NCBI GenBank assembly: GCA_037134915.1
Contig: JBAXLJ010000001.1
Coordinates: forward strand, 165,484-229,483
Direction: 5' to 3'
Length of the DNA: 64,000 nt
DNA from: Candidatus Falkowbacteria bacterium
Lineage (GTDB): Bacteria > Patescibacteriota > Patescibacteriia > Patescibacteriales > UBA12465
The translations under genes and the position numbers were made by a program. Positions 33,173 through 64,000 of this stretch are shown piece by piece (the first letter of the stretch is position 1; every line of letters begins with the position of its first letter). The notes beneath the pieces were generated by a model. That model searched no databases. It had not been told where the DNA came from and was given only the letters and a program-made list of their open reading frames with translations.

Positions 33173-33183
33173 GGCTCGCGTTT

Positions 33184-35792: not shown

Positions 35793-35803
35793 ATTTTAAA
35801 TAT

Positions 35804-41936: not shown

Positions 41937-41997
41937 AATCTAATTATAACACAAAAAACACCGCCTTATTAAGGCAGTGTTCTTATTTTTATTTATG

Positions 41998-42799: not shown

Positions 42800-42826
42800 A
42801 GACAATTTAGTATCGGATAGACTCAA

Positions 42827-42856
42827 GTACCTCTTATAAAGAGGTGCTTTTGTTTT
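42827..42856 (+). terminator. Terminator after tRNA-Ser
   Basis: uaccucuu-aua-aagaggug hairpin followed by CTTTTGTTTT. Confidence 0.55.
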
Positions 42857-42979
42857 ATATTATGCAAATGACCCTTGAATTTTAGCCTAAATAGGGGTAA
42901 GGTTAGAATAATTATACTTACCATAAATTGATAATAATATAATTAAATATAAATTAAATTTGTTTTAACGTTTTTCGAT

Positions 42980-45544
42980 ATGATGATGTCAAAATATCTT
43001 TCTTTGCATGGTACAAAAATGGGCTACTTGGAGACCTTTTTTCTTAATAATATATATTATGCAGATTATGGCGAAAAGGGTTTAGATTTTATTGAACCAG
43101 AGGTGAATATCGATAGAAATGATGGCACTGATAGAAAATGGCGGCTAGATTTTGTTGTAACTACAAAGAATAGAAAATATGCCATAGAATGTGATGGTTT
43201 TAATTATCATGCCGCAGGGATGGTGTCCCGTGAAAGGTTTGATGAGCTTGAAGCTAAACGCAATGAAGTTATAAGACAAGGTTTTATATTAATTAGTCTT
43301 TCAAGAGATCAGATTACAAATAACCCTGATGACGCTATTTATGAACTTAGAAGAACATTTAATGCGGATAAGGAACTTTATTCTTTGTTCCTCAATTGGA
43401 ATTCTGGAACCATAGAGCCGCATGATGTTCAGATTAAAGCGCTAGACGCTCTTAAAGCAACAAGAGAACAGGGAAATACTAAGGGGTTGGTAGTATTAGC
43501 AACTGGATTAGGAAAAACCTATTTAAGTATTTTTGATGCTAAAGCTATGAAGGCAAAAAACATTTTGTTTATTGTCCACGTAGATCATATTCTTAAACAA
43601 GCCAAAAATTCTTTTGAAAAGGTTATGCCGGAAAGATCGAAAGACATGGGTTTCTTCACTGGCAAAGAAAAAACATACGAAGGTAAGAGTATAGTTTTTT
43701 CCACAATTCAAACTATTAATAAAGAAAATAATTTAAGTCAATTCTCTAAAGATTATTTTGATTATATTATTGTTGACGAATCTCATCACACGGCAGCACC
43801 TAGTTATAAAAAAGTGACTGAATATTTTCAACCCCAATTCTTTTTAGGTCTAACTGCTACACCAGATAGAATGGACGAGAAAGACATACTGGAGTTCTAT
43901 GGAAACAATCTCGTATTTGAAATGGGACAATCAGAAGCCATAAGACAGGGTTACTTGGCAAGTCTTAATTATCAGGGATTTATTGATGATGTTGATTATT
44001 CAAAAATTTATTACAACGGCTTTCGTTATGATATTACAGATTTGAATAAACATTTAATGATTGCTCGTCGTGATAACGCTATTATTGATAAATTCAAGGA
44101 ATTGGCTCGAGACAAAAAAACTATTGGTTTTTGTGTATCAATAGAACATGCTGATTGGAGCGCCGATCAGTTCAGAAAAGCTGGAATAGATGCAATTTCA
44201 ATTCATTCAAAAATAGAAGATAAAAATACCGACGGAGCCTATCAATCAGCATCAGAAATAATTGATGCTTTCGAGAATGGGAAGCACCAGGTGGCCTTTG
44301 TGGTTGATATGCTGAATGAGGGTATCGATATTCCAGACGTGGAGTGCTTATTAATGTTACGTCCGACAGAATCCAATGCCATATTAACACAGCAAATTGG
44401 AAGAGGTCTTAGAATATCAGAAAACAAAGATGAAGTGTTAGTTCTTGATTTTATAGGAAATTATCAAACGGCTCCAAAAATTCTTCAGGGTCTAGGAATA
44501 GGTAAGGTCGGTGATTTAATAGAGGACAAGGAAAAGGGTGTTTATTATTACGAAAACGAAGGAAGACGTGTACAATTTCAATCTGAGGTGGTTGATATAT
44601 TTAGGTTTATGCTTAGTAAGTCATCCACTAAGGTTCGAGAGAGTTTAATATCAGATGAATGGAAGGCTTATGGTGAATACCTTGAATTAAACACAAAAGC
44701 TGGAACAAATCTTTTTTGGAGTGTAGGAAAAAAGAATAATAATTTAAGTATGCACTTATGGGCATTAAATTTTATAAGTGAAAATAAAGATAAATTTCTT
44801 ACTAACGACGCACTCTCTGAAGCATTAAAAAAGGAATCGGAAAGAGTTTCTCCTAACGCTACCATGGAAGGTATACGAGCTTTATTTTTTAGTAAGTTAA
44901 TTGGTTTAGTTATAAATACAAGTCCATTTGAATTATCTCCTGCTTATTATTCTTTATCGCAATATATAAATAAGGATGATGAAAAAGCTTGGTCTATTGT
45001 TTCTGACCAAATAGAGAAATTTTATTTTTTTAATGATATATCGGCTTTAGTAAACAGACATTCTGAAACGGGCGAACGTAGACACGTTGACGAATTGTTT
45101 CATGTCTATCCAATTTTTTTCATATATCAAGTCTTACTAAGATTAAGAGAAAGAGGTTATGAAGAACTGAGATTAACAAGTTTTGAAATTAGTCACTTTA
45201 TTGCACTTTCACGTACACACAATGATGTTAGTGAATGCGTTGACAGGATTGTAGCTTATCGCGAATACGAAGAAAAATATGAACTTGAAAAATTTTTAAA
45301 ACAAAAATCTACCATGGATTCAAGGTTATTTAAGGTATTAAAATATATAAAATATTTTAATTTCTCTACAAGCTCTATTTTATTAAAAGAGGAATTTTTA
45401 AGTGAATTAGAAGGGAGAGTTAATTTATTCAACAAGTTAATAGAGGATGAAAAATTAATTATGTTTGATAAAAATAATTCATCGGAGTATAGAGAAATGC
45501 TATATTCAGAAGATGATATTATTTCTTACCATGAAAAATTATAG
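42980..45544 (+). CDS. Restriction-type nuclease-helicase: N-terminal DUF559/Vsr-like endonuclease fold, SF2 (ResIII-type) helicase and an unknown C-terminal domain
   Basis: The N-terminus RKWRLDFVVTTKNRKYAIECDGFNYH is a PD-(D/E)xK-like (DUF559-type) motif. Helicase motifs are LATGLGKT (I), IIVDESHH (II), LGLTATPDR (III) and QQIGRGLR (VI). The gene is convergent with, and abuts, two methyltransferase genes. Confidence 0.7.
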   Translation: MMMSKYLSLHGTKMGYLETFFLNNIYYADYGEKGLDFIEPEVNIDRNDGTDRKWRLDFVVTTKNRKYAIECDGFNYHAAGMVSRERFDELEAKRNEVIRQGFILISLSRDQITNNPDDAIYELRRTFNADKELYSLFLNWNSGTIEPHDVQIKALDALKATREQGNTKGLVVLATGLGKTYLSIFDAKAMKAKNILFIVHVDHILKQAKNSFEKVMPERSKDMGFFTGKEKTYEGKSIVFSTIQTINKENNLSQFSKDYFDYIIVDESHHTAAPSYKKVTEYFQPQFFLGLTATPDRMDEKDILEFYGNNLVFEMGQSEAIRQGYLASLNYQGFIDDVDYSKIYYNGFRYDITDLNKHLMIARRDNAIIDKFKELARDKKTIGFCVSIEHADWSADQFRKAGIDAISIHSKIEDKNTDGAYQSASEIIDAFENGKHQVAFVVDMLNEGIDIPDVECLLMLRPTESNAILTQQIGRGLRISENKDEVLVLDFIGNYQTAPKILQGLGIGKVGDLIEDKEKGVYYYENEGRRVQFQSEVVDIFRFMLSKSSTKVRESLISDEWKAYGEYLELNTKAGTNLFWSVGKKNNNLSMHLWALNFISENKDKFLTNDALSEALKKESERVSPNATMEGIRALFFSKLIGLVINTSPFELSPAYYSLSQYINKDDEKAWSIVSDQIEKFYFFNDISALVNRHSETGERRHVDELFHVYPIFFIYQVLLRLRERGYEELRLTSFEISHFIALSRTHNDVSECVDRIVAYREYEEKYELEKFLKQKSTMDSRLFKVLKYIKYFNFSTSSILLKEEFLSELEGRVNLFNKLIEDEKLIMFDKNNSSEYREMLYSEDDIISYHEKL

Positions 45545-46591
45545 CTAGTAGTTTTCTTTAATCGTTTTTGCTAGTTCATATGCCATCATAGGTGGCACTG
45601 CGTTACCAACTTGCAACATCTGATTTGTTTTTGTTCCGTAAAATATAAAATCATCAGGAAAAGATTGCAGCCTGGCCGCTTCTCTTACGGTTATACATCT
45701 ATCCTGATATGGTAATGTGAACTGGCCTGAAGATGGAGTGTCAAATCTTGTTGTAATAGTCCGCGCAAAACCATCTGGCTTTAGTCTTGTCCAAGTACCG
45801 CTATGGATTGATTTTGTACGATGACGATCTGGCAAATCTTCTTTTGTTCCATTGATAGAAATATAGGAGAGACGCTCAAGAGCGATCTTACTATGTTTTG
45901 TTGCTATATGGTTTTTAACAGTGGAGGAATTAAGTCTCATTAATTTTTGAAAATTATTTTGCGCTTTTTTTGCGTATTTTTGTTCACTTACGCCCTCTCC
46001 AGATTTTAAAGAAGGCAAGTCGTTAATAGCCTCATCAACTGTTGTTATTTTTCCATTACCATCTGGTAGATCAAAATTTAACTTCCCCTTTCTTCCTAAA
46101 AAAACAGCCCTTCTTCTTGTTTGGGGTACTCCAAATTTTTCCGTCTTCAATACTTTTGCTTTTATATCATAACCGAGCTTCGAAAATACATCGATTATTT
46201 CTTGCTTAAAAAAACCATTTTCTGAAGATAGTATATTCGGCACATTTTCTAACAAAAAAAATTCTGGTTTAACTATTTCAACGACCTTAACAAATTGTTG
46301 AAACATAAAATTTCTTTCATCGTCAACCCCTATTCTTTTTCCTTTTTGTGAGAAACCCTGACACGGAGGGCCGCCCATCACAATTTGAACTTTATTTTCA
46401 AATTTACGAAAAGTTTTTTCGAAATCAATATCTCTGATGTCGGTTGAATCGACTATAGTTTTTGGGTGATTTTTTTTAAACGACTCAGCTATTGATTTAT
46501 TATATTCATTTGCGTAAACAATGGTAAATCCTGCTTGTGAAAAACCCAAGGATAGACCACCTACGCCAGCGAAAAGGTCAATTACTTTCAT
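45545..46591 (-). CDS. dcm: DNA (cytosine-5)-methyltransferase
   Basis: C5-MTase motifs DLFAGVGG (I), GGPPCQGFS (IV), ENV (VI), QTRRR (VIII) and GNAVPP (X). Confidence 0.9.
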   Translation of the reverse strand: MKVIDLFAGVGGLSLGFSQAGFTIVYANEYNKSIAESFKKNHPKTIVDSTDIRDIDFEKTFRKFENKVQIVMGGPPCQGFSQKGKRIGVDDERNFMFQQFVKVVEIVKPEFFLLENVPNILSSENGFFKQEIIDVFSKLGYDIKAKVLKTEKFGVPQTRRRAVFLGRKGKLNFDLPDGNGKITTVDEAINDLPSLKSGEGVSEQKYAKKAQNNFQKLMRLNSSTVKNHIATKHSKIALERLSYISINGTKEDLPDRHRTKSIHSGTWTRLKPDGFARTITTRFDTPSSGQFTLPYQDRCITVREAARLQSFPDDFIFYGTKTNQMLQVGNAVPPMMAYELAKTIKENY

Positions 46592-47355
46592 TATTTTAAA
46601 ACTTTATTATTAATAATATCAGCTATACGATGCATTGCTATTTTGTAGTAACCTTCATCAAGTTCTACGCCGTAGAAGCATCTGTTTTTATTCATAGCGG
46701 CCACCCCAGTTGACCCACTACCCATAAACGGATCTAGAACCATATCATTTTTATTCGATAAAAGTTCTACGAAATGCTCCATTAATGCTATAGGTTTTTG
46801 TGTTGGGTGCTTACCGTATTTCTTTTCTTTTCCATTTATAATCGAGGATTCATAAAAATCATGAATAAGTTTTCCCTTGTTGTTGAATTTTCCAGTTTTA
46901 CCATCATTAATAAAATATATCCAAGCTTCTGTTGAATTTACAAAATGCAGATTCATATTTCTTGGCATTGGATTAGTTTTATGCCATATACCTGTAGTTT
47001 TGTAATAAAATCCATTTTGCTGAGCAAGGTTTATTATTGTTTCAACTTTTATTAGAGAGACAAATATCAATAAAGCACCCTTTTTTTTCAGAACCCTGCT
47101 GGATTCTTTAAAAAAATCATTCATATTTACTTCCCAATCTTTTTGTTCAATATGATCCCAGTTTGATGCGGCAAAATGATTCGATCGTAAGGCGCCAAGA
47201 TTTGTATCCCTATTTTGCATAAATAACCCTAGGTTATATGGAGGGTCAGTAAGAACTAAATCAACAACATCGTCGTTGATTTCTTTCATTTTTTTTACAC
47301 AATCGCCAAGTGCTAGAGTGCAGTCTTTATTTAGATTATTTAGAGTATTTAGCAT
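46591..47355 (-). CDS. DNA N6-adenine/N4-cytosine methyltransferase (beta class)
   Basis: The catalytic TDPPYNLG precedes the SAM-binding DPFMGSGSTG. A 1-nt overlap links it to the C5-MTase gene. Confidence 0.85.
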   Translation of the reverse strand: MLNTLNNLNKDCTLALGDCVKKMKEINDDVVDLVLTDPPYNLGLFMQNRDTNLGALRSNHFAASNWDHIEQKDWEVNMNDFFKESSRVLKKKGALLIFVSLIKVETIINLAQQNGFYYKTTGIWHKTNPMPRNMNLHFVNSTEAWIYFINDGKTGKFNNKGKLIHDFYESSIINGKEKKYGKHPTQKPIALMEHFVELLSNKNDMVLDPFMGSGSTGVAAMNKNRCFYGVELDEGYYKIAMHRIADIINNKVLK

Positions 47356-47435
47356 GTTTTTATTATATCATTTAGAGTGTTAGATATCTAGTAAGCATTG
47401 ACAAATATTAAATATTTAATTATTTATGAATTATA

Positions 47436-48788
47436 CTATTTTATAAGTGTTAGCGTTTTATTTTTATATGTTATTTTAGATTTTAAATTAGCAAGTAACT
47501 CTCGCTTCTCAATAGAACTTCCTTCTTTAAGGACATACTTAGCATAAACCCGCATATCAACTGAGGGTTTATGTTTTTTGTTGGGTTGTTTTTCTCCAAG
47601 TACCATGTTTTGAAATTTATTTAAGCGCTCAACTTCCATTTCCATTCTGGTTAGTATTCCGAGTTCATTCATATCAACCTTATCTATTATTTTTAATAAC
47701 TCAGTTATTAATTCTTCTTCGCGGATATATTTATTTTTACAAAACCTGTCTCTTGCCCTAGAACAGCCATAATAAATGTAATGTGCCGTTGTGCCATCTT
47801 TAAGTTGCTTATATTTGTCTTCGGCTGATATTCCCGAACCGCAACAACCGCAAGTTATCAATTTAGTAAAAGCGAATTCTTTATTCTCTCTAACAATATT
47901 ATCTCTTTTTAATTGGGTCTTTGCTTTCTCAAATAACTCTTGAGTAATTAGTGGCTTATGTTTTCCTTGGTACCAATTACCGCTACCTTTTGGTCTTTCA
48001 AATACCCCGTAGTAAAAAGAATTATCTAATATTCTATATATACCACTAAGTGTTAATGGTTTATTACCTCGAGTATAAAAATTAAGTTCATGAACTAGCC
48101 AATGATATAGTTTTCGTCCGCTATATTTTTCATAAGCAACCTTTTCAAACATTTGTTTAATCGCTGGCGATCTAAGCGGATCTACAATAACCTGACATTT
48201 TTTATCCATTCGATTTTGGTTTAAATACCCTAACGGGGCAGGCCCTACCCATAAGCCCATTTCGCATCTAGTTCTGAGTCCTCGTTTTACATTTACACCT
48301 CTGTTGTCGTTTTCTAATTTAGCCTGTGACCCTAAAATCATTAGTAAGAATTTCTCATTAGGATTATTAGTGAATCTCTGACTGAAAGTTCTTATTTCTT
48401 TAAGTATTCCTTGGTCGATTAAATCGACTATTGCCCCAAGGTCGCCAGCATTTCTTGATATACGATCTGGGGCCCAGGTTAGTATCGCATTAAATTTGCC
48501 TAGTTTAATATCGGCCACTAATTCATTAAAAATTTGTCTTTGCCCAACTTCTTTAGCACTATGAGATTCTCGTCTTATTTCTGTAATATTGAGATTCTCT
48601 CGAGTGGCCAAATCGAGCATTTCTTTGATTTGGCTATCAATTGATAATACCTGTCTTTCTTCGGACTCAGTTGACTTCCGAGCATAAAGACAATACTTCA
48701 GGGTTTCTTGTGAGAAGACCCCTAAATTAGCTCCATTTTGGCCCTGTATGGTCGCATTGGGGCCTAAAACTGTAGTTACTTGGTTCAT
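47436..48788 (-). CDS. Large serine recombinase (resolvase/invertase N-domain, recombinase domain and zinc ribbon)
   Basis: N-terminus YCLYARKSTESEERQVLSIDSQ (catalytic Ser region), …DRISRN…, a recombinase domain and a Cys cluster CGCCGSG…YYGC. Confidence 0.85.
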   Translation of the reverse strand: MNQVTTVLGPNATIQGQNGANLGVFSQETLKYCLYARKSTESEERQVLSIDSQIKEMLDLATRENLNITEIRRESHSAKEVGQRQIFNELVADIKLGKFNAILTWAPDRISRNAGDLGAIVDLIDQGILKEIRTFSQRFTNNPNEKFLLMILGSQAKLENDNRGVNVKRGLRTRCEMGLWVGPAPLGYLNQNRMDKKCQVIVDPLRSPAIKQMFEKVAYEKYSGRKLYHWLVHELNFYTRGNKPLTLSGIYRILDNSFYYGVFERPKGSGNWYQGKHKPLITQELFEKAKTQLKRDNIVRENKEFAFTKLITCGCCGSGISAEDKYKQLKDGTTAHYIYYGCSRARDRFCKNKYIREEELITELLKIIDKVDMNELGILTRMEMEVERLNKFQNMVLGEKQPNKKHKPSVDMRVYAKYVLKEGSSIEKRELLANLKSKITYKNKTLTLIK

Positions 48789-48875
48789 ATGGTTATAGTT
48801 GTTATAACCAAGTAATGACGCAATAAAGATAGGAAGTCTAGGCCTTTAAAGTAGGTAAGTTGTTGGTAACTATAC

Positions 48876-48904
48876 TTTACTTTTTGGCTTTTTCAAGCTA
48901 TATT
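48876..48904 (+). promoter_or_regulatory. Candidate promoter driving the structured leader
   Basis: TTTACT (48876-48881), a 17-nt spacer and TATATT (48899-48904). The predicted start near 48911 coincides with the 5' strand of helix P1. Confidence 0.35.
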
Positions 48905-48910
48905 TTAAGT

Positions 48911-49070
48911 GCTAAACCGTAATCAAATATCGTGAAGTGCGCACCCAATTTTTGGGAGCCTTGGCTTATTTGCATACAGGAACGGACATACCGACCCATA
49001 TGCAAGTAGGCGTCTTCACGGACACTGATTGCGGTTTAGCGACCGGGTCGGGTGTCCGTTTTTGTTTTTT
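48911..49070 (+). ncRNA. Unclassified structured leader / riboswitch-like element with intrinsic terminator
   Basis: Nested helices: P1 48911-48925/49026-49040 (15 bp, one U·G); P2 48931-48937/49014-49020 (7 bp); hairpin 48944-48956; hairpin 48967-48976/48999-49008 (10 bp, one U·G). A competing terminator at 49018-49025/49052-59 is followed by TTTTGTTTTTT. Confidence 0.45.
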
Positions 49071-49108
49071 AGACGGGTTTTCGACCATTTATAATTAATT
49101 ATAAAAAT

Positions 49109-49696
49109 ATGGCCGAAGCCAAACAAAACATTTGTAAGCATTGTAAGGAATCAGTTGCCAGGGGAGCAACGAAATGCCCTCATTGCCAGTCTGATTTAAG
49201 AAATTTCTTTGTTAGACATCCGTTAATAGTGATATTTTTATTAGCAATATTAGTACCGACTATTATTTCAGCACTAGGAGAGAATAGATCGGTGACTTCA
49301 CAACAAGCTCAAAAAACGCAGACTCAAACCCCAGTAGATACCAGCAACATTAAATATGAAATAATCAAAACATGGGATATTGCTAACGGCGGAACTGGAA
49401 GAGAAATATTAATTCCTGTTTCTTATGTTAACGACAAGGACATGGTGGCTTTGGGTGAAAAACTAAAATCAGATTTTGTAGATGAACGCAATAACTTTAT
49501 CTGGGTATTTACCGATAAAAAACTTTCGGCTCTAAGATCTAAGATGATGAAGGCGGATCTTAGTAAGAGTGATCAAGATTTCTATGACAAACACTATGTT
49601 GGTCAATATAATAAAAATATAAACTCGGGAATGAACAGATTTGTTATTTACTTCGACGGCGTCAACGGATCAAATCAAAAAACTATTAATTATTAA
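49109..49696 (+). CDS. Zinc-ribbon membrane protein (hypothetical)
   Basis: N-terminus CKHCKESVARGATKCPHCQS, one TM helix (LIVIFLLAILVPTIISAL) and an extracytoplasmic domain. Confidence 0.6.
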   Translation: MAEAKQNICKHCKESVARGATKCPHCQSDLRNFFVRHPLIVIFLLAILVPTIISALGENRSVTSQQAQKTQTQTPVDTSNIKYEIIKTWDIANGGTGREILIPVSYVNDKDMVALGEKLKSDFVDERNNFIWVFTDKKLSALRSKMMKADLSKSDQDFYDKHYVGQYNKNINSGMNRFVIYFDGVNGSNQKTINY

Positions 49697-49713
49697 AATA
49701 GAAAGAAATAATA

Positions 49714-49747
49714 AAAAACATCACGGCAATTAAACCATGATGTTTTT
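49714..49747. terminator. Bidirectional hairpin between convergent genes
   Basis: aaaacatca-(14-nt loop)-tgatgtttt with flanking A-runs and T-runs. Confidence 0.5.
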
Positions 49748-49753
49748 ATTTTA

Positions 49754-50245
49754 CTACTTAAGATTATTATTTTTCCATTGAGCTAATCTCTTAGCCAATT
49801 TAGCTAAATATTCAGGTGGTAATTTTCTTTCTCGCGTGTCCTCTGATAAAGCTAGGAGCGGATTAATGAAATTTGGATGCATATGAGTTAGCCAAAATAT
49901 TGTTGCTCTTGGGTCATCATTTTTAACCCTGCCAATTAACTTCGATTCGGCTAGATCATTAATAGTGTTTCTTCCTTCTATTTGACTCTTTTTGAACTCT
50001 CTTCCAAATTCATAATCATCTATCATCCAGCGGTATAACGTCGCCCTAGAGATGCCAGTTTTTTGACAAGCGATTGACGAGATGTAGACATTACGTATTT
50101 CTTCAATCATTTTCTTCTTTTGCTCTATTTGTCTTTTTTCTATGGTGCTAAATTTGCGTTTAGTTATCTTTGTATTCTGGTTGTCTTGATTTTGTTCAGC
50201 CCTTCTTTTTAAGACATCAGCAACGGTCTCAAGTTTAGGCGTCAT
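49754..50245 (-). CDS. Helix-turn-helix DNA-binding protein (phage small-terminase-like / regulator)
   Basis: The segment IACQKTGISRATLYRWMIDD is HTH-like. A 4-nt overlap joins it to the upstream methyltransferase gene. Confidence 0.5.
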   Translation of the reverse strand: MTPKLETVADVLKRRAEQNQDNQNTKITKRKFSTIEKRQIEQKKKMIEEIRNVYISSIACQKTGISRATLYRWMIDDYEFGREFKKSQIEGRNTINDLAESKLIGRVKNDDPRATIFWLTHMHPNFINPLLALSEDTRERKLPPEYLAKLAKRLAQWKNNNLK

Positions 50246-52309: not shown

Positions 52310-52412
52310 ATTAAAAACAGGCTCAGGTCTATTAGAATTTAATCCTAAAAGTCTCTGCTGTTTTTTCTGGTAGGTTTAATAGCTCATGCGGTGTTTATTT
52401 TGTTAGCTCCTT

Positions 52413-55278: not shown

Positions 55279-55286
55279 TATAAACT

Positions 55287-55769: not shown

Positions 55770-55780
55770 CTTAAGATAAA

Positions 55781-55996
55781 ATGTTTAATAAAAAAACTTT
55801 AGAATTTCATATTAAATCCGATGATTATTTTGGTACTATAGCTGCTATTCTTAGTTTGTTGAACCAAGGAGTTATTGATAATAAAAATAGGAATCAAATT
55901 TTAAATGAGAAAGTTGAAGAACTAGTATATCTTCAAAAGAATTATAAAATTATAAAAAAGGATGGATCTAAATCAAGCAATAAAGAACATAGATAG
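55781..55996 (+). CDS. Small hypothetical protein (71 aa)
   Basis: A short ORF packed tightly in the cassette. It overlaps the next ORF by 35 nt. Confidence 0.4.
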   Translation: MFNKKTLEFHIKSDDYFGTIAAILSLLNQGVIDNKNRNQILNEKVEELVYLQKNYKIIKKDGSKSSNKEHR

Positions 55997-56627: not shown

Positions 56628-56644
56628 ACCATATAATTAAATCT

Positions 56645-57883
56645 ATGACTGCTGAAACCATTACAAATTACACTTTATTAGCAACAATAGCCGTCGCAGT
56701 AATTGGATGGATAGTTGCCATTGTTTTACAAAGAAAAAATCTTAAAGATCAACATAAAATTCAAATTAAATATGATATCTATAAACAATTAGTTCAGGCA
56801 AAAAGTGATATACAGGAGCCCCTCAATAGGCTTGGCACAAGTGTCGTTACCCCGTTTATTTTAATGGACTCAAGCATGATCCCATTTACACATAAGTTAA
56901 AAAAACAGTATAAAGATATCTGGGTTGACTACACTGAATCAGAGTGTTTAATTGATGGAGAACAAAAATGGAACAGTTATGTAAGTGAGATAAAAAAATC
57001 AGCTTCAGAATTTATAGGAGAATATATAAAACTAATGGGTATTTTTGAAAATTGGGAATCAGCTTTATCCGAGTTAATTCAAGTTAGAAATATTTTGTTT
57101 GCCGAAATAAATAGACTGAAGAAAGATATTGATAATCAAGCGGATTTTTTCCAAATGTATTCTATAGAAAAGGGGCATGATTGGAGAACATGGGACAAAG
57201 AGGATCTTATTAAGAGAGCCGAGAATATTCGAGATGCTTCTTCTGAAATTGGAAGTTATTTTAATGATTTTATGGTTCTTGTTAACAACAAACTCATGGC
57301 ACAATATTTTGGACATTATAGAGAATTGAGAAAGCCTCTTGACCCAAAATATAAAGTTTTAACTTTAAAGGGGTTGGTTGAGAATGTTGATAAAGAAAAA
57401 GTTGAAGAGATGAAGGTAAATAAAGAAAAATTAATAGCACTTGCTCAGAAAAATCTAGACAAGTCATTGCAACCAAATGGGAATATCGCACCAGATTACG
57501 AATCTTTTTTGCGTTCTGTTATAAGCGGGATATGCCCTGTATGCAATAATCCAATAGAAGTTTATTCAATGGAGTTAAATGATAATAATTTTTGTTTCAA
57601 TTATCTCTGTGGTCATAGCTGGAAAGGGTTTACGTTTAACGAGACATTAATGATTAGTGAATTAATAAAAACTAAAACAAAAAGATTTGGATTTGGCTGG
57701 CTTAGAAAAACCGTTCAGGGATGGAAGCCTAGCGGCGATCTAAAATTAAAAAAAGGAGTAGATGTTTATATGGATGCAAACAGAGAAGCTAATGAATACC
57801 ACCATGTAGTGAGTAACCATGAAACAAAAGACGTCATACATGAAGAGCATGAGCTATTAACTGAACATAAGCCACATTCCTAG
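56645..57883 (+). CDS. Membrane-anchored protein with C-terminal zinc-ribbon-like motif (hypothetical)
   Basis: An N-terminal TM helix (LLATIAVAVIGWIVAIVL), a helical middle region and CPVCNNP…CGHSW. Confidence 0.6.
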   Translation: MTAETITNYTLLATIAVAVIGWIVAIVLQRKNLKDQHKIQIKYDIYKQLVQAKSDIQEPLNRLGTSVVTPFILMDSSMIPFTHKLKKQYKDIWVDYTESECLIDGEQKWNSYVSEIKKSASEFIGEYIKLMGIFENWESALSELIQVRNILFAEINRLKKDIDNQADFFQMYSIEKGHDWRTWDKEDLIKRAENIRDASSEIGSYFNDFMVLVNNKLMAQYFGHYRELRKPLDPKYKVLTLKGLVENVDKEKVEEMKVNKEKLIALAQKNLDKSLQPNGNIAPDYESFLRSVISGICPVCNNPIEVYSMELNDNNFCFNYLCGHSWKGFTFNETLMISELIKTKTKRFGFGWLRKTVQGWKPSGDLKLKKGVDVYMDANREANEYHHVVSNHETKDVIHEEHELLTEHKPHS

Positions 57884-58058
57884 AGTGATTATCATAATAT
57901 TTGTCAATTATTAGCCAAAATATTCAATAAACCCTTGTAACCCGCTAAAAGCTCTATAGTGTCTCATTTGTCTCATTTACCCGACCCACTTACTTATTTT
58001 AAGTTCAAGAAAAGACTCTAAAAAGCCCTTATAAACCTCGCTAATGGTGGTACTTAAC

Positions 58059-59546
58059 CTAGTTAGCCCGCAGATTGTCAATATCACTGTTGACGCAACA
58101 ATTAGCTAGGGTTTCAAAGGGTTCTTTGAAACTAACCTTAGCTAATTTTTTGTTGTCTATGGTTGAGTTCCAAAGTATCTTAGAGAGCATTTTTCTTTTG
58201 TCATCTAAACTAACTTGAAAAAATGATTTTTTCATCTTTTTAGGGCTTAAAAAGAACTCTTTGGTAAGTTCCAAGTCTTTTTCTGTCAGGGTAACTTCTT
58301 GCTCATTTTCTAAATTTTCAATTGCCTTTTTATAGTTTATAATTTCATTTTTAATCACTAATTCTTTAGTTTCAAATTCTTCTTTAGAGATAGATTTATC
58401 AAGGAGTAGGTTAAAGAGTTCGTCTTTTCTGTTTTCAAATCTCTTGAGGTCGTTTAGCAGGTTAGACTTGGCTTCTAGATACTCACGAGCGTCCGGGTTA
58501 TTATGAATTAAAAGCTCTTTAGTATTATCATACATTTCTTCAACTAAATCTTCCGAAACAACTAGTCGATCAAAGACACCGGCTAAAACATTTATCACTT
58601 CTTCCTCTTTTAAATAATGATTATGCTCACTACATCCGCCGCGACTATTAGTGCAGTAATAATAAACATACTTCTTCTTTTTTCGAGAGGCTGTTAACAA
58701 GCAACCACATTTTTCACACGACATCAGCCCTCTAAAAGGAAAATAGGGCTGTTTCTGTTTAGGGTGTTGTTTATTAATCATTACTTCCTGACAATCTTTA
58801 AATAGTTTTTGGGTAATTAATTTTTCGTGAGTACCCACATATTCTTTTTCGTGAAATTGCATAATGCCGCAATAAAAAGAATCTTTAAGTAATTTATAGA
58901 CTTTACTCTTATGATATTTAACGCCGCCTCGACTTCTAAACCCCTCCTCATACATCAAATTAGCTAGCTCTTTCATTGTATAGTTACCGGTTGAATATAA
59001 TTGAAATAACTTTTTAATATATCGAGCTCTTACTTTATCGACGGCTATTCCGCCTTTGCCGTCATTTAAATAACCAATCGGAGCGAAGTTCGGCCATAAA
59101 CCTTTTTCAATCTTAGTCTGTATTCCACGTTTTACGTTCTTACTTAGATCTAAAATATATTGATTAGCCATTGAGCCCTCAATATTTAAGAGCAGCACAT
59201 TATCACTTGGCAAATATTGTCTATCAGATGTTTGAATCGCTTTTATCTTGCCTTGCTGAAGTAACCATTGAATCTTGCCGCTATCAATCGGGTTGCGACT
59301 TAATCTATCTATTTTCCAGCACAATATTCCGTAGTCTAAATTCGTATCTTCTAAAAGCCTCATCATCTCTAAAAACAATGGGCGATTGTTTGGCAGCTTG
59401 GCCGACTTGCTTTCGGTATAGACCATTTCAATATCTAGTCCTAAACTGGTGGCCAGCTTTTTCATCTCACCGACTTGGCTCTCAAGTGAGAGAATTTGTT
59501 TACTTTTGTCTTCGCTAGACTTACGAGCATAAAGAATGTATTTCAT
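58059..59546 (-). CDS. Large serine recombinase (second copy, divergent from the first)
   Basis: N-terminus MKYILYARKSSEDKSKQILSLESQ, …DRLSRN…, a recombinase domain, Cys cluster CEKCGC…YYYC and a coiled-coil C-terminus. Confidence 0.85.
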   Translation of the reverse strand: MKYILYARKSSEDKSKQILSLESQVGEMKKLATSLGLDIEMVYTESKSAKLPNNRPLFLEMMRLLEDTNLDYGILCWKIDRLSRNPIDSGKIQWLLQQGKIKAIQTSDRQYLPSDNVLLLNIEGSMANQYILDLSKNVKRGIQTKIEKGLWPNFAPIGYLNDGKGGIAVDKVRARYIKKLFQLYSTGNYTMKELANLMYEEGFRSRGGVKYHKSKVYKLLKDSFYCGIMQFHEKEYVGTHEKLITQKLFKDCQEVMINKQHPKQKQPYFPFRGLMSCEKCGCLLTASRKKKKYVYYYCTNSRGGCSEHNHYLKEEEVINVLAGVFDRLVVSEDLVEEMYDNTKELLIHNNPDAREYLEAKSNLLNDLKRFENRKDELFNLLLDKSISKEEFETKELVIKNEIINYKKAIENLENEQEVTLTEKDLELTKEFFLSPKKMKKSFFQVSLDDKRKMLSKILWNSTIDNKKLAKVSFKEPFETLANCCVNSDIDNLRAN

Positions 59547-59663
59547 ATTATTTTAGCTAAATTTATTAATTAGTTTAAATTGTTGTGTGATTAAAACGTC
59601 CCGGTGTGTGCGTATAGTCAAGTTAATATATATAGAGGGGACGTCTTGTCTAAAATCTCATTT

Positions 59664-59731
59664 ACCGGCCATTTTCTTTTTTCGGCTCCCCGCAGGGATC
59701 CGCCAAAAAAAGAAAAACAACGGCGGCCGGT
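59664..59731 (-). promoter_or_regulatory. Long imperfect hairpin / dyad-symmetric site upstream of the second recombinase gene
   Basis: Outer stem ACCGGCC/GGCCGGT, an 11-bp U/A-rich stem, GGC/GCC, and an apical UCCC-CGCA-GGGA. The single C·A mismatch on the plus strand becomes G·U on the minus strand. That is weakly consistent with a minus-strand RNA (the recombinase 5' leader). Confidence 0.4.
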
Positions 59732-59914
59732 CCATCTGCAATCAACATAACAAAGGGGAATTAAGAAAAGTTATTGGCCGTTTTTCTTAACTCTTTAAAT
59801 CAGTAAGTTTTGTTGGTTTTTAATGCGAAAATTTACTTAATATTGGAGTTTTTTATTATTGCTTAGAAAATGTTTTAGAGGTAATATTAAGTCATAAGTA
59901 ATATTAGTAAAATT

Positions 59915-60199
59915 ATGAAAAAAATTGCTGTTAAATATTTTGTTTTGCTGTTTGTAGTTATCTCATTATCAGCTTGTTCAGGCGAAAAAACTTGGACTGG
60001 TTATTATTATCCAGACAAAGACAACATAGGAAATGAAAATACTTGGGTTATTCAACCGGGTTTTGAAACTATAGATTATTGTAGAGATTGGGTTGATAGT
60101 GTTGCTAAAGATAACCAGAATTATGACTATGAGTGCGGTTATAATTGTACGTATAGGCAGGAATACAAAATGAATGTTTGTGAGAAAACAGAAAAATAA
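59915..60199 (+). CDS. Small lipoprotein
   Basis: Signal peptide with a lipobox (VVISLSAC|SGE). The mature part is Cys-rich. Confidence 0.6.
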   Translation: MKKIAVKYFVLLFVVISLSACSGEKTWTGYYYPDKDNIGNENTWVIQPGFETIDYCRDWVDSVAKDNQNYDYECGYNCTYRQEYKMNVCEKTEK

Positions 60200-60216
60200 A
60201 TAAATAATTTAAATAT

Positions 60217-60756
60217 ATGAAAAATTTTATAATTTTATTAAGTATTATTATTACGTTTTGTTTAATTCAGTTATTCTTGGGGTCTGATTCGGTTTTACGT
60301 ATAGCGGCAGCCTTTTCAATGTCGTCTATTGCATTTGGTATTTGGCTTTCACTAGAGGCTCATAGTTTAAAAACAAAATCAGAAAAAGCAGAAATAGATA
60401 TAAAACTAATGAGTTTATTTACTAAAATAATGGGCACTGCTCATGGACGAGGCGGATATTATTCTTCTGAGAAAACAATTGAAAAAGCATTTGATTGCGG
60501 GTTGTTTGGAGAAGGTAGTGTCGCTGATAAAAGTAAAATAGAGGATTTTACTATATTAAATAAAAAGATTTCAGCTATATCAGTTTTAACTATCCCAGTT
60601 GGAGCCGCGGAACAAGACGCAGCTATTGCAGCTATTGGTAAATTAGCGGAAAGACATGAGGTTTTAAGAGATGTTGCTATTGAGGGTTTGCAATCTCTAA
60701 ATAATTTTAAATCCGATGTAGCTAATAAATATTTAGAAAAGTTAATTAAAAAATAA
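60217..60756 (+). CDS. Membrane protein (hypothetical)
   Basis: Two N-terminal TM helices and a soluble C-terminus. Confidence 0.55.
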   Translation: MKNFIILLSIIITFCLIQLFLGSDSVLRIAAAFSMSSIAFGIWLSLEAHSLKTKSEKAEIDIKLMSLFTKIMGTAHGRGGYYSSEKTIEKAFDCGLFGEGSVADKSKIEDFTILNKKISAISVLTIPVGAAEQDAAIAAIGKLAERHEVLRDVAIEGLQSLNNFKSDVANKYLEKLIKK

Positions 60757-60817
60757 TGTCATGCCAATTTTTCAATCTTAAATAGTGGGGTAAATAATAT
60801 TTTTTTAGACTAAATTT

Positions 60818-61738
60818 ATGGAAGACTTAAAATATAAATCGAACGAGGAGTTGATGGAAATAATGCGTAACAGCATTGATAATTCTTATGTTCCATCTTC
60901 AATTTATAATAAAGCGAAATTAGAATTGGAATTTAGAGTTCTTAATCGTAAAGAAAGTGGTAAATCTGACACAGATGGCTTGGCGCAAAAATTAATTGAT
61001 ATTCAACACCAAATAGATAAATTAATAGATCTCGATAGGAAGGGGCTACTTGAAAGAAAAGAGCTTTATGAATTTAGGGATAAAATTGAAATTGAGATAA
61101 GAAGTTTTATTGATAAATATGATGATGAAACTCAAAGACATTTTAAAAAAATTACCTCTGGGTTTAAAAATGACCCTAAACCTGGCTTTACAAATATTGG
61201 CGAAGCTGAAAGTTTCTTAAGATACATCATTGATTTTATAGATCAGTCAGTAAAACGTTTAATTGGAAAAGACTTTAGAACTGAAGCATATATTTCTGCC
61301 GGTCGTCCTTTTGATGGAAGAAAACAACTAGAAAATGTATTTGAAACTGCGCAGAAAGAAATTTTTATAGTTGATAACTATTTACAGAAAAATATATTAT
61401 CAATTCTTGCTGGTATTATGGAAAATAGACAGAAGTTTACGCTCAAGTTTCTGATAGGAAATAAAAATAAGTCCAAATTTGATGGTTTTATTGCGGATCT
61501 CCCGGATTTCTCAAAGCAATATCCTTTAGTAAAGATTGAGTGCAGACAACATGATGACCTGCATGATCGTTTTATAATTATCGATGAAAACTTTCTTTAT
61601 GCGGTTGGTAGTAGCCTAGATAGTATTGGAGAGAAAGGAAATTTTATATCAATGGTTCGTGATGAAAAATCAAAAATAGACCACACTTCTGACACAACTT
61701 CCTTGTGGAACACTGGTATAGAAATGTTCAAAAATTAA
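60818..61738 (+). CDS. Hypothetical protein with C-terminal PLD-like (HxK-variant) fold
   Basis: The C-terminus KEIFIVDNYL…LHDRFIIIDENFLYAVGSSLDSIGEKGNF resembles a phospholipase-D/nuclease repeat. H-D-R replaces the H-x-K core. Confidence 0.45.
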   Translation: MEDLKYKSNEELMEIMRNSIDNSYVPSSIYNKAKLELEFRVLNRKESGKSDTDGLAQKLIDIQHQIDKLIDLDRKGLLERKELYEFRDKIEIEIRSFIDKYDDETQRHFKKITSGFKNDPKPGFTNIGEAESFLRYIIDFIDQSVKRLIGKDFRTEAYISAGRPFDGRKQLENVFETAQKEIFIVDNYLQKNILSILAGIMENRQKFTLKFLIGNKNKSKFDGFIADLPDFSKQYPLVKIECRQHDDLHDRFIIIDENFLYAVGSSLDSIGEKGNFISMVRDEKSKIDHTSDTTSLWNTGIEMFKN

Positions 61739-61800
61739 CAACAAAATTACGAGCCAACAAAGGATACAGATAAATCTCAGTTATATTAATTATTAATGAA

Positions 61801-61870
61801 CTTCCTTCCAATATGGTACCAAGCTCTCCGCAATCACATTAAACAAGGTTAAAACCTTGTTTTTTGGTGC
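61801..61870 (+). repeat. Cassette-end repeat copy E (CTCTCCGCA box plus terminator hairpin)
   Basis: cttccaa-tatgg-tacc-aagctctccgca, then 9 nt, then the aacaaggtt-aaa-aaccttgtt hairpin and TTTTTGGTG. Confidence 0.4.
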
Positions 61871-62024
61871 CTTTTTTAAGTTTTTCAGTTCGAACTTGGT
61901 GTAGGGAGTGCGGGACGAGTTTTAATAAAAATGCTTGTTTATATTTATTTTTAGTCAAAATTATCCAGTTCGAACCTATTTTTTCGATGTTGATTTTTAT
62001 AACTATCTCTATTATAATTTGAGT

Positions 62025-62501
62025 ATGGAAAATATAAATTTAGAAAAATTAGATAAAAAATTTGAATTGATTTCTAAATTAAGTCAGATTTTGAATGAGA
62101 ATATAGATAAACGTGTCGTTGTTGTGGGGACTACGTGTACGGGGAAAACCACTTTTTTAAAAAATATCGAAAATGCTCACGATATGGATGAACTGGTTTT
62201 TCCTCAATTAACCAAAGAAGAGCATGATTATGTTTGTTCCCATCCTTGGACTCCGGAAATTGGGAGTAAAATGATTAGCCTAACAAAAGAGAAGGTTAAA
62301 ATTGGGCCAGGAAATCCAGTTTTTGGCACAATAGTTTTAGAAAGTGATTTAATTGTATATTTGCAAATTAGCGATGAACTCTTGAAACAACGTACGGAGT
62401 TAAGAGGTGCAAATTTTGAGGATGCTAAAAACATGCAAAAACAGATTGAAGAAGAAATTATTAAATCAAATATACCGGTGTTAAATTTTTTTATCGGTTA
62501 A
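62025..62501 (+). CDS. P-loop NTPase / small kinase-like protein
   Basis: Walker A VVVGTTCTGKTT. I chose ATG 62025 (MENINLEK); the ORF track starts at 61935. Confidence 0.6.
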   Translation: MENINLEKLDKKFELISKLSQILNENIDKRVVVVGTTCTGKTTFLKNIENAHDMDELVFPQLTKEEHDYVCSHPWTPEIGSKMISLTKEKVKIGPGNPVFGTIVLESDLIVYLQISDELLKQRTELRGANFEDAKNMQKQIEEEIIKSNIPVLNFFIG

Positions 62502-62506
62502 AATTT

Positions 62507-63049
62507 ATGGTAACAATTATTTTTGAATCACACAGCACGACAATTGATAACGAAAATCATTTATCTTCCGGCTGGAATGATATCGAGCTTTCGGAATTGG
62601 GGAATAGACAATCAGTTGAACTCGGAGAGCGCTACCAAGATGAAAAATTTGATGCGATTTTTTGTTCTGATTTAAAACGTTCTTATAATACCGCTGAAAT
62701 CGCCTTCGCAGATAGAGATTTTAAGATTATTAAAGATGCCCGGCTCAGAGAATGTAATTATGGAGATTTAACTCAACACCCAAGTGCTGAAGTAGATTTA
62801 GAGAAACCAAGGCGAATTTCCGAACCATTTCCAAATGGCGAAAGTTATGAAGATACAGCTAAGAGAATGGGCAATTTTTTAAACGATCTATTGAAAGACT
62901 ACGATGGTAAAAAAGTTATGGTTATTGGTAGCAGGGCTACTCAGTACGGCTTAGAGCATCATATTAAAAATGTATCGGTAAAAGATGCCGTAACTGCTCC
63001 CTGGAAATGGCAACCAGGATGGACTTATATTTTAAATCAGATAAACTAG
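62507..63049 (+). CDS. Histidine phosphatase superfamily (phosphoglycerate-mutase-like) protein
   Basis: The N-terminus IIFESHSTTIDN (a catalytic His where RHG normally sits), …CSDLKRSYNTAE… and a downstream His (GLEHH). Confidence 0.7.
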   Translation: MVTIIFESHSTTIDNENHLSSGWNDIELSELGNRQSVELGERYQDEKFDAIFCSDLKRSYNTAEIAFADRDFKIIKDARLRECNYGDLTQHPSAEVDLEKPRRISEPFPNGESYEDTAKRMGNFLNDLLKDYDGKKVMVIGSRATQYGLEHHIKNVSVKDAVTAPWKWQPGWTYILNQIN

Positions 63050-63082
63050 TAATTTGTTAATTTTCATTGGCGTTTTCCAAAA

Positions 63083-63152
63083 CTCCAGTTCGAACAAAGT
63101 CCCTTACTCCCCGCATTAACAAAAATAAGCTAGTAATAGCTTATTTTTTGTT
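63083..63152 (+). repeat. Cassette-end repeat copy C (tRNA-3'-end-like box plus terminator hairpin)
   Basis: ctccagttcgaac-aaag-tccc-ttactccccgca, then the ataagcta-gtaa-tagcttat hairpin and TTTTTTGTTG. Confidence 0.4.
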
Positions 63153-63397
63153 GGATAGAGTAAGCAAAAATATTGCCAAATATCAGTATATTTTAGCTAA
63201 TATTTATATAAATAGTAGCTGTTCCAAAGTAAGATATTTTATCTACTAATTGACATATTTAATAAAATATTTTAGTATTTAATCATTAAAATAGAACATT
63301 CATAAATAAGATTAGATTTGATTAATTACCAAGTTCATCTAAAAATGGTGTATTTAGTAATTAATCAAATTATTATTAATCTTTAAAAAATATAAAA

Positions 63398-63847
63398 ATG
63401 GAAACAATTATCTTTTCTGATTCTTATTTAATGTTTCAGGCTAATCAATTAGCCAAAAAACCTCGACGGTTAAAAATAGCAAATTATGTCGACTTAGTTT
63501 TACTGTTTTTCTTTGTAGCCTATGTGTTAATGTTTGGACAATTTTATTGTAGTGGTTATGTAACGTATAACGTTGCATCTCAATTCTGTGTCGCCGGTAT
63601 GTTATGCTTTGGTATTTTTTCATGTATTGCTCATTATTTTCCTTACTGGGTGAATGTTGAAAAAAATGAAATCAATCAGGCTATTGAAACTATCTTTTTA
63701 AATAAAGAAGCTTCACTTAAAGAAGAAATTGCAGAAGCCAAAAAAGAAGTCCGTTATGCGAAAAATAACCTTAAAGATGAAAAAAGAAAACTGTCTTTGG
63801 CTAATGAAGCTTTGAAACAGCTTTATAAAACCAAAGAATTAAAGTAG
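63398..63847 (+). CDS. Membrane protein with C-terminal coiled coil (hypothetical)
   Basis: Two or three TM helices, then a KE-rich helix (KEEIAEAKKEVRYAKNNLKDEKRKLSLANEALKQL). Confidence 0.5.
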   Translation: METIIFSDSYLMFQANQLAKKPRRLKIANYVDLVLLFFFVAYVLMFGQFYCSGYVTYNVASQFCVAGMLCFGIFSCIAHYFPYWVNVEKNEINQAIETIFLNKEASLKEEIAEAKKEVRYAKNNLKDEKRKLSLANEALKQLYKTKELK

Positions 63848-63928
63848 AATTTTAAATAACCTATTAAAAGCCTGGAATATTGAATAAATCAATAATTCAG
63901 GCTTTTTTATTTAGTATGTTTGTGTATA

Positions 63929-64000
63929 CTCGTTCCAACTACATCCCACTCTCCCCGCAGATTGACAAGAGCATACTAATGTAGTATGCTTTTTTGTTGA
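63929..64000 (+). repeat. Cassette-end repeat copy D (tRNA-3'-end-like box plus terminator hairpin)
   Basis: ctcgttccaac-tacatccc-actctccccgca, then the agcatacta-atg-tagtatgct hairpin and TTTTTTGTTG. It runs to the window edge. Confidence 0.4.

Follow-up and report, generated by a model that had tools for sequence, protein, structure and literature searches.

A probable accretion array of large serine recombinase elements at the 3' end of a tRNA-Ser gene in a Patescibacteria chromosome

Site-specific islands at tRNA genes are textbook territory of the tyrosine integrases. The locus described here, in which another class of recombinase is likely to be at work, lies in a stretch of 64,000 nucleotides from Candidatus Falkowbacteria bacterium (NCBI GenBank assembly GCA_037134915.1, contig JBAXLJ010000001.1, positions 165,484 to 229,483 of the forward strand), hereafter the window, where the tRNA-Ser(GCT) gene at 42707-42799 (+; ARAGORN; Rfam tRNA, 59 bits), the putative target (attB, B arm), is followed by an island with two large serine recombinase (LSR) genes, LSR1 (47436-48788, -) and LSR2 (58059-59546, -). 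Comparative sequence analysis, computational throughout, suggests that, from 42800 to at least 63958, site-specific integrative elements have probably accreted into an array at the 3' end of this tRNA gene, in a chromosome of the Patescibacteria (candidate phyla radiation, CPR), and that two of these elements, A and B, would be separate units with an LSR of their own. An initial annotation of the window had seen no tyrosine integrase, and none of the 20 largest island open reading frames (ORFs) gave a match to Phage_integrase (PF00589-type) by Pfam, remote-homology fold tests not having been run. This absence is a point of interest rather than a gap, given that the 3' end of the tRNA gene is likely the attachment site and the serine recombinases are likely the integrases.

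Among the described LSR systems, the nearest analogue in behaviour may be SCCmec, while the nearest serine-family enzyme tied to a tRNA-Ser gene may be that of the phiRSM phages. SCCmec is an LSR element found in Staphylococcus at the 3' end of rlmH, a protein-coding gene, and usually needs both ccrA and ccrB. It resembles the present array in the position of an LSR element at the 3' end of a conserved gene, in the composite arrays with recombinase-less pseudo-elements, and in the accessory cargo, and it differs in its rlmH target, in its usually two cooperating recombinases, and in its staphylococcal host. The attB of phiRSM is reportedly (Askora et al., in 2011) the 3' end of a tRNA-Ser gene. 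The enzymes of the phiRSM type, which belong to a filamentous Ralstonia phage, are small and resolvase-like and have neither the Recombinase nor the zinc-ribbon domain of LSR1 and LSR2. The use of a serine-family recombinase as the integrase of the phiRSM group has been documented (PMC7192596).

The LSRs of phages and other elements (SPbeta SprA, A118/LI Int, Bxb1 and phiC31) share with the enzymes of the window their three-domain architecture and, in the case of SprA, sequence similarity, together with the position of the int gene at one end of the element and the preserved function of the target gene. On the other hand, the target is here the 3' end of a tRNA gene rather than a protein-coding gene, the hosts are Patescibacteria, there are no phage structural genes, and the att half-sites have little dyad symmetry. 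The tyrosine-integrase islands at tRNA genes (Islander) are alike in that they extend from an intact tRNA to a displaced 3' piece of tRNA-like sequence, in the restoration of the tRNA 3' end by the island, and in forming tandem arrays at one tRNA. A signature of this type is seen in the window, where the tRNA at 42707-42799 and a directly oriented CTCTCCGC at 61824-61831 (8 nt, exact), which has a native-like flank, enclose two integrase genes; it differs in the serine recombinase, in the shared core of only ~8 nt, and in the displaced piece, which is a mimic and not a true copy.

The tycheposons of Prochlorococcus (bioRxiv 10.1101/2020.12.28.424599) are likewise small cargo elements that target tRNA genes, with tandem repeat junctions, a proximal tRNA proper to each island and flanking partial tRNA copies, and some of them are satellite-like and carry terS. 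They belong to another host phylum, 910 of 937 have tyrosine recombinases, and the paper does not place its large serine recombinase elements at tRNAs. In the TIGER survey (2020), 14 of 297 elements with a serine integrase (S-Int) were found at t(m)RNA genes, against 44.5% for the tyrosine integrases; the S-Int cases were called previously unreported and in need of experimental proof, and its authors suggested that a mechanistic feature peculiar to the tyrosine integrases steers them towards tRNA genes. A search of the full text of the literature returned nothing relevant on Patescibacteria or Saccharibacteria together with serine recombinases.

The character of the sequence changes right after tRNA-Ser(GCT), as the initial annotation had judged by eye. 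The guanine plus cytosine (GC) fraction is 0.393 for positions 1-42706 and 0.334, 0.323, 0.336 and 0.264 in the four segments of the island, 2-kb windows range over 0.357-0.430 in the core, against 0.290-0.366 for those of the island, and the sliding profile stays at ~0.39-0.40 up to 42 kb, drops directly after the tRNA gene and runs at ~0.33 afterwards. Comparison was made with loci of 44 related Patescibacteria genomes (related loci and contigs are cited below by handles beginning with L), ten of which were scanned for tRNAs. These relatives are distant: the relatives by RecG are all metagenome-assembled genomes of Patescibacteria, the best at 84%, 83%, 79% and 71% identity, and Falkowbacteria stand at ~58%. 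The closer ones have in common the order RecG, tRNA-Arg(GCG), a 174-aa membrane protein and tRNA-Ser(GCT), after which a variable spacer follows, with a tRNA-Ser(TGA) gene 2-9 kb further on in 8 of the 10 genomes scanned. When every island protein was searched by tblastn against the 44 loci, with a reciprocal search, no match was found beside tRNA-Ser(GCT), and the single exception elsewhere was an LSR homologue in L017, a complete Falkowbacteria chromosome, at 120 bp from the 3' end of tRNA-Ser(TGA). Since the island genes are absent at the tRNA of the relatives and the DNA that follows it varies, the region is considered accessory, and the neighbourhood of tRNA-Ser a lineage-wide hotspot; a conserved core, with the same genes in the same place, is not what the 44 relatives present.

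Element A occupies 42800-58071 (15.3 kb) and begins at the joint tRNA/CAAGACAATTTAGTATCGGATAGAC, a slash marking the joint here and below. In its attL (42790-42858, +), the core CTCTCCGC leads into the P' arm CAAGACAATTTAGTATCGGATAGAC, and there is a hairpin resembling a terminator, AAGTACCTCTT..AAGAGGTGCTT, with a T run behind it. In the window, tRNA-Ser(GCT) terminates in CTCTCCGC/CA and owes its CCA to element A, while the unoccupied tRNA-Ser(GCT) genes of L005 (9135-9160) and L006 (3068-3093) end in CTCTCCGC/A and encode no CCA; every gene joined to a P' arm of the LSR1 type reads CTCTCCGC/CAAG, and encodes it. Given the difference between the unoccupied and the occupied ends, the joint would lie at or beside CCGC, with the element supplying both CCA and terminator, and integration would turn a tRNA-Ser gene devoid of CCA into a CCA-encoding one. 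The 38 nt directly after the tRNA-Ser(GCT) of the window are 84-89% identical to the sequence found after tRNA-Ser(TGA) in two distant relatives. No long direct repeat of the tRNA 3' end was found within the window, where only an 8-10-nt core recurs.

This joint recurs widely. An exact search with the 18-mer ACAATTTAGTATCGGATA gave 116 metagenome stretches, in 96 of which it stands in junction context, after ...CCGCCAAG, and a hidden Markov model (HMM) built from these junctions matches the left end in the window at E 6e-20. Behind the 18-mer there is usually a hairpin that carries a T run, with stems that differ between loci; as a candidate part of a known RNA it was set aside, given that Rfam finds only the two tRNAs. 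Its left partner, as called by ARAGORN, is a tRNA-Ser gene in 29 cases covering all four isoacceptors (GCT in 14, TGA in 8, GGA in 5 and CGA in 2), tRNA-Asp(GTC) in 4, and a pseudo-tRNA arm, i.e., a T-arm-like sequence ending in ..CCGCC, in 54, while the upstream sequence was too short for a call in the remaining 9. The junctions with tRNA-Asp(GTC), which read ..CCGTCCGTTCCGCTAAG/ACAATTT, come from L151, L156, L175 and L182, and this tRNA may be a secondary target or reflect a switch of specificity.

The position of the recombinase gene relative to this junction is fixed. In 21 of 21 cases the LSR1-like gene of a junction locus (52-96% identity by tblastn, some hits being partial) is placed downstream of the 18-mer, on the opposite strand and pointing at it, at distances of 99 bp to 7.2 kb, with none upstream. 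The exact 18-mer has no match in IMG/VR, where relatives of LSR1 at 70-73% identity are found 1.7-2.8 kb from tRNA-Ser ends or from a mimic arm with a diverged motif. The stretch between P' and LSR1, which measures 0.1-7.2 kb in related elements and differs in content, corresponds in the window to a first cargo slot (42980-47355), whereas the other side of LSR1 carries a backbone module at 49754-52309 (-), formed by a ParB_N-methyltransferase, a methyltransferase and a terS-like helix-turn-helix (HTH) gene. The same module, in the same order, is found upstream of the LSR1 homologues in most of the IMG/VR contigs among the maps listed (of 52) and in several metagenome contigs, and the region directly upstream of LSR1 (48789-49108) is conserved in L213, L073, L174, L069 and L159. 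A second cargo slot follows at 52690-57883.

Element A closes on the right with a conserved region of ~120 nt (57955-58071, +), which holds GTCTCATTT twice in tandem and the pseudo-tRNA arm P(c), GGTGGTACTTAACCTAGTTAGCCCGC (58045-58071, +; P(c) HMM, E 3.5e-4), and the LSR1-type elements of L111, L213, L132 and L208 close on the right with a conserved version of these ~120 nt. The ends of A are P' = CAAGACAATTTAGTATCGGATAGAC and P = the arm 'GGTACTTAACC...AGCCCGC'. The tandem 9-mer, GTCTCATTT GTCTCATTT at 57964-57981, lies ~90 nt inside the right end, is kept in L213, and is present as two copies of GTCACTTTT in L190; it could be a candidate binding site for an accessory protein.

At 58071 the P(c) arm abuts AGATTGTCAATATCA, which codes, on the opposite strand, for the C-terminus of LSR2, and the last three sense codons of LSR2 and its stop codon lie across this A/B junction. 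In L190, which carries an LSR2 homologue of 79% identity, the homology with the window starts exactly at CCCGC/AGATTGTCA, and the sequences differ to the left of this point, with a different P(c) arm; the 3' end of an LSR2-like gene abuts a pseudo-tRNA arm also in L190, L100 and L213. Element B (58072-61831, 3.8 kb) carries LSR2 and has as its ends P' = AGATTGTCAATATCA, inside the C-terminal coding sequence of LSR2, and P = a T-arm-like arm, '...CTCTCCGC'. Its attR (61804-61875, +) consists of a P(b)-like arm, CCTTCCAATATGGTACCAAG, with the core CTCTCCGC at 61824-61831, and then of the earlier flank of the tRNA with its terminator: positions 61824-61875 are 85% identical to the last 10 nt of tRNA-Ser(GCT) and the 3' flank in the closest relative, L003, and this stretch contains the only other exact copy of CTCTCCGCMA in the window. 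The ORFs of element B comprise only LSR2, a 94-aa lipoprotein, a 179-aa membrane protein and a PLD-like protein, and LSR2 would be its only plausible recombinase, given that the other three are small and non-recombinase. Upstream of LSR2, a conserved leader of ~100-220 nt (59596-59820) presents an inverted repeat, ACGTCCC...GGGGACGT, together with a GC-rich segment; sequence of 72-97% identity to parts of it is found upstream of the LSR2 relatives in L134, L190 and L147, and also 1.6 kb upstream of the LSR of L017. The leader matches no Rfam family, and no relatives of LSR2 were found in IMG/VR.

Each kind of element is also met on its own in other metagenome contigs, with its own pair of ends, which agrees with the suggestion of the initial annotation that at least two serine-recombinase elements are stacked here. 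Two layouts recur in the maps of all the loci with LSR genes. Elements of the LSR1 type have the order P' (the 18-mer), variable cargo, LSR1 in reverse, HTH, one or more methyltransferases, ParB-methyltransferase, further cargo and P(c), as seen in the window (15.3 kb), L111 (12.0 kb), L213 (13.2 kb), L212 and L054. Those of the LSR2 type have the 3' end of LSR2 at the left joint and close in a P(b) arm after 2-7 kb of cargo, as in the window (3.8 kb), L100 (~5 kb), L134, L147 and L190. The array order of the window is repeated in L213, where a tRNA, an element with an LSR1 of 96% identity, a P(c) arm and an LSR2-like gene follow one another; since the latter has only 50% identity, LSR1 and LSR2 would have been acquired independently. 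Several IMG/VR contigs hold two full modules of ParB-methyltransferase, methyltransferase, HTH and LSR1, and as both of their LSRs are of the LSR1 type and each has its own ParB-methyltransferase module, the doubling is read as tandem elements. The IMG/VR contigs with the LSR1 module (L047-L098) are filed as viral, and several of them resemble chromosomal tandem arrays; the viral label may be a misclassification, the copy in the window being without structural phage genes.

The pseudo-tRNA-arm profiles find four arms in the window, all on the + strand, and the last two close segments without a recombinase, ending at 63114 and 63958. Remnant C (61935-63114, +), with an AAA-like protein of 188 aa and a histidine phosphatase (Pfam), ends in the arm P(b2), CCAGTTCGAACAAAGTCCCTTACTCCCCGC (63086-63114, +; P(b) HMM, E 2.8e-4), and then a terminator, while remnant D (63398-63958, +), with a membrane protein of 149 aa, ends in P(b1), CGTTCCAACTACATCCCACTCTCCCCGC (63930-63958, +; P(b) HMM, E 0.022), again before a terminator; the P(b) arms seen most often in the metagenome junctions have almost the sequence of P(b1). 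The right boundary, which had been placed outside the window, falls inside it (at 61831) for the recombinase-bearing part, beyond which only the older, recombinase-less part of the array continues in the direction of the window end. A motif containing a palindrome, CAGTTCGAAC, is found just outside element ends at 61887-61896 and 61967-61976, and in L017 just 3' of tRNA-Ser(TGA). Its copies look like the T-loop portion of P(b2) arms, which reads CCAGTTCGAAC at 63086, and may be decayed arms.

Logan contigs from an independent assembly of one run (SRR12676973; L002, L215 and L001) are 100% identical to the window, and a single contig of 19,125 bp corresponds in its length to 42771-61895, i.e., A plus B. 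The contigs break at 42735, 42771, 61866-61895 and 63235, ~65 nt or less from the ends of A+B and of remnant C, which would be compatible with heterogeneity in the population; repeats or a T-run variant explain the breaks equally, and they are not counted as evidence of excision.

The large serine recombinases called in the initial annotation stood up to domain analysis, with their coordinates unchanged. Both carry PF00239 (Resolvase), PF07508 (Recombinase) and PF13408 (Zn_ribbon_recom) in that order, all above the gathering scores, and match the integrase family PHROG 95 (LSR1, E 7e-58; LSR2, E 7e-73), and their clear difference in sequence amounts to 35% identity over 349 aa. The Resolvase domain starts with a Y-A-R-K-S motif, LYARKSTE in LSR1 and LYARKSSE in LSR2, the serine of which is presumably the catalytic nucleophile. 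From this motif onwards LSR1 aligns, over residues 32-380 (E 9e-10), with SPbeta SprA (9dxh), whose PDB sequence has no Y-x-R-x-S motif at the position aligned to that of LSR1.

Building on the observed junction sequences, on their recurrence, on the fixed geometry of LSR and end, and on the absence of the genes from relatives, we infer the following route, in which the LSR catalysis, the exact position of the crossover and the order of the events are the deduced parts. The LSR would recombine the attP of the element (P joined to P') with an attB formed by the T-arm and acceptor 3' end common to the tRNA-Ser genes, with the crossover at or next to ..CCGC, where the junction sequences place it. 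The P' arm would then rebuild the 3' end of the tRNA and, in the case of A, also supply an encoded CCA and a terminator. Element B probably came first, and A would have entered later, into the regenerated tRNA, pushing B outward, while C and D would be older elements that have lost their recombinase. Because of the resemblance of the P arms to the tRNA end, an element might equally have entered an existing attR, and the final structure would be the same.

Several observations weigh against an array built in this manner. The closest relative has only 84% RecG identity, and neither an empty site in a near-identical strain nor an excised circle was seen. The arm at 61804-61831 (+; ...CCAAGCTCTCCGC) matches the P(b) profile weakly (E 1.5), and the displaced 'tRNA fragment' is an exact 8-nt core plus a mimic, far shorter than classical displaced tDNA. 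Serine integrases commonly have imperfect inverted repeats as their att half-sites; here, a weak dyad is found by eye in the attP of the LSR1 type (7 of 10 positions, GGTACTTAAC against GATACTAAAT, centred on ..CC/CG..) and none in that of the LSR2 type, and the dyad is not used as evidence. About 15 of the 27 junction loci with at least 5 kb downstream show no LSR there, which means that the motif is kept in places with no recombinase nearby, or that another agent serves some of the elements. Also, L134 (4137-5829) deviates from the canonical layout of the LSR1 type, with P', ~100 bp, and then HTH/ParB-methyltransferase, and no LSR1 between them.

It is conceivable that A and B are a single element which needs both serine recombinases, in the manner of ccrA and ccrB in SCCmec, with the P(c) arm at 58071 as a relic or a regulatory site. 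The recurrence of the order LSR1...LSR2-like in L213, the several IMG/VR contigs with two LSR genes, and the membership of LSR1 and LSR2 in one clade (35% identity) would all fit such an arrangement. However, LSR1-type units running from P' to P(c) occur without LSR2 in L111 and L212, and P(b)-bounded LSR2-type units without LSR1 in L100, L134 and L147, the homology with L190 stops precisely at the internal junction, and the unequal identities of the two enzymes in L213 (96% and 50%) speak against co-inheritance; the doubled LSRs of IMG/VR are, moreover, both of the LSR1 type, each with its own module, as expected of tandem elements. Given this, a single two-recombinase element is considered unlikely, and separate elements A and B are preferred.

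The movement of these elements might also depend on another enzyme, either an undetected tyrosine integrase or a helper acting in trans, with the LSRs serving as resolvases, as invertases or in the excision of a sub-segment. Tyrosine integrases account for the overwhelming majority of islands at tRNA genes, LSRs are almost unreported as users of such genes, several orphan ORFs have no assigned function, and many junction loci have no LSR nearby, yet no Phage_integrase match was found among the ORFs scanned in the window or in the sampled junction loci, where ten large ORFs from loci without an LSR encode Fic/DOC, HsdR, ArsP, adhesin-like and other cargo proteins, and element B has no other ORF of sufficient size or suitable kind. 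The orphans are not conserved across the related elements, whereas the LSR gene and the fixed geometry of the ends are, and no inverted-repeat pair typical of an invertible segment surrounds either LSR, which leaves the earlier proposal of inversion or sub-segment excision by one recombinase unsupported; another enzyme is held to be very unlikely. No more can be conceded to the view that homologous recombination among tRNA-Ser genes, fragments of tRNA pseudogenes and common terminators has reshuffled a hypervariable locus in which the LSRs are passengers. In its favour, two tRNA-Ser genes stand 2-9 kb apart in relatives, the spacer between them varying and containing scattered pseudo-tRNA arms, and the sequence 3' of tRNA-Ser(GCT) in the window matches that of tRNA-Ser(TGA) in distant relatives. 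Against such shuffling, the 25-nt P' motif is far better conserved than its flanks across hosts whose RecG proteins are less than 60% identical, its position and orientation are tied to one recombinase clade in 21 of 21 cases, with the motif changing as the clade diverges, and the type of arm at the right end goes with the type of recombinase. Site-specific integration by the LSRs is, for these reasons, the explanation retained for the array.

The gene content of the island, called by Pfam (the 20 largest island ORFs), PADLOC and PHROG scans, includes all the genes listed in the initial annotation. The first cargo slot of element A encodes a ResIII/Helicase_C nuclease-helicase (42980-45544, +), with a weak REase_MTES_1575 match and a PADLOC match to mREase_IV (1e-71), a C5 methyltransferase (45545-46591, -) and an N6_N4 methyltransferase (46591-47355, -), both called by Pfam and PADLOC. 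Between LSR1 and the HTH gene lies a zinc-ribbon protein of 195 aa (49109-49696, +), with weak Pfam matches and one transmembrane (TM) segment by TM scan, and the backbone module itself is made up of the terS-like HTH protein (49754-50245, -; PHROG terS matches up to 2.5e-6), an N6_N4 methyltransferase (50242-51006, -; Pfam), and a ParB_N+N6_N4 methyltransferase fusion (50975-52309, -; Pfam). The second slot begins with an AAA_13 ATPase (52690-55278, +; PADLOC PDC-S06, 1e-169), which belongs to the Pfam family containing RloC/PrrC, and also encodes, within 52690-57883 (+), four orphans of 160 aa (5 TM), 71 aa, 221 aa and 412 aa (N-terminal TM). These orphans have no Pfam or PHROG match, and that of 412 aa has no PDB match; a homologue of the 221-aa protein is present in L213 and L070. 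In element B, the 94-aa lipoprotein and the 179-aa membrane protein (within 59915-61738, +; TM and lipobox scan) accompany the PLD-like protein of 306 aa (60818-61738, +; PADLOC PDC-S05, 1.6e-21). A simple hydropathy scan gave six orphan ORFs with TM-like segments, one of them also with a lipobox, in accordance with the orphan membrane and lipoprotein genes noticed earlier.

The defence-profile matches by PADLOC comprise the mREase_IV-like helicase, four MTase_II, PDC-S06 and PDC-S05, the PDC families being candidate systems only, and the cargo can be described on this basis as mostly candidate anti-phage defence, in the form of the nuclease-helicase with two methyltransferases and the two candidate PDC families; no cognate type II endonuclease was identified for the island methyltransferases. 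No prophage structural genes (capsid, portal, large terminase or tail) were found in the Pfam and PHROG scans of the island ORFs, the phage-like matches being limited to the weak terS-like HTH protein and the ParB-methyltransferase, and no relaxase, coupling protein or type IV secretion genes were found by Pfam within 42800-64000. The terS-like protein might, as a speculation, hint at a satellite lifestyle for these elements, which have neither conjugation nor capsid genes. The divergent intergenic region between the ParB-methyltransferase and PDC-S06 (52400-52520) holds two similar copies of ~35 nt, ..gttaacgcatatgtgcgggttcatttaaaa.. and ..ggtaacgcatagtgcggattcgtttaaga.., each with hairpin potential. 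A 30-nt direct repeat at 52566 and 57900, tried as a pair of cassette ends, receives no support from the related loci.

The 42 kb to the left of the island encode RecG, RadA, AsnS, RecJ and LepA and a VirB4/PrgI/TraC-like cluster. A protein of 2681 aa and this cluster, which has a VirB4 of the CD1110 family and adjoins radA, are encoded at 18150-26195 and 30140-36433, with the VirB4/PrgI/TraC-like genes at 31-36 kb; the type IV secretion-like set stands outside the island, in core DNA of normal GC (0.39). The tRNA-Arg(GCG) gene (41997-42069, -; ARAGORN and Rfam) next to recG is conserved in all ten of the relatives scanned for tRNAs (L003-L017). In most bacteria, the corresponding tRNA-Arg has the anticodon ACG, edited to ICG, instead of GCG.

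With somewhat less assurance than is given to the array itself, LSR1, LSR2 and the enzyme of L017 can be regarded as members of a clade widespread in the Patescibacteria, whose natural attB would be the 3' end of tRNA-Ser genes, occasionally of tRNA-Asp, and which would rebuild the tRNA on integration (in the LSR1 type with a terminator and an encoded CCA, absent from native genes), creating through repeated integration the main variable hotspot of defence genes beside tRNA-Ser in these reduced genomes. What is new is the class of recombinase used at a tRNA target, for which LSRs are nearly unreported, and the apparent spread of the family in CPR bacteria: the locus in the window and the ~100 related junctions make a coherent case, with defined ends, a fixed geometry, four tRNA-Ser isoacceptors, and two recombinase subtypes that have their own ends. 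If true, large serine integrases that target tRNA genes would have here their first well-supported family, which would also be a ready source of att/integrase pairs for organisms almost without genetic tools, in a compact form (element B has 3.8 kb) and at a site conserved across much of the phylum. If confirmed, the family would bear on the idea of the TIGER authors that a tyrosine-specific feature steers integrases to tRNA genes, and would explain the shuffling of defence genes in CPR bacteria.

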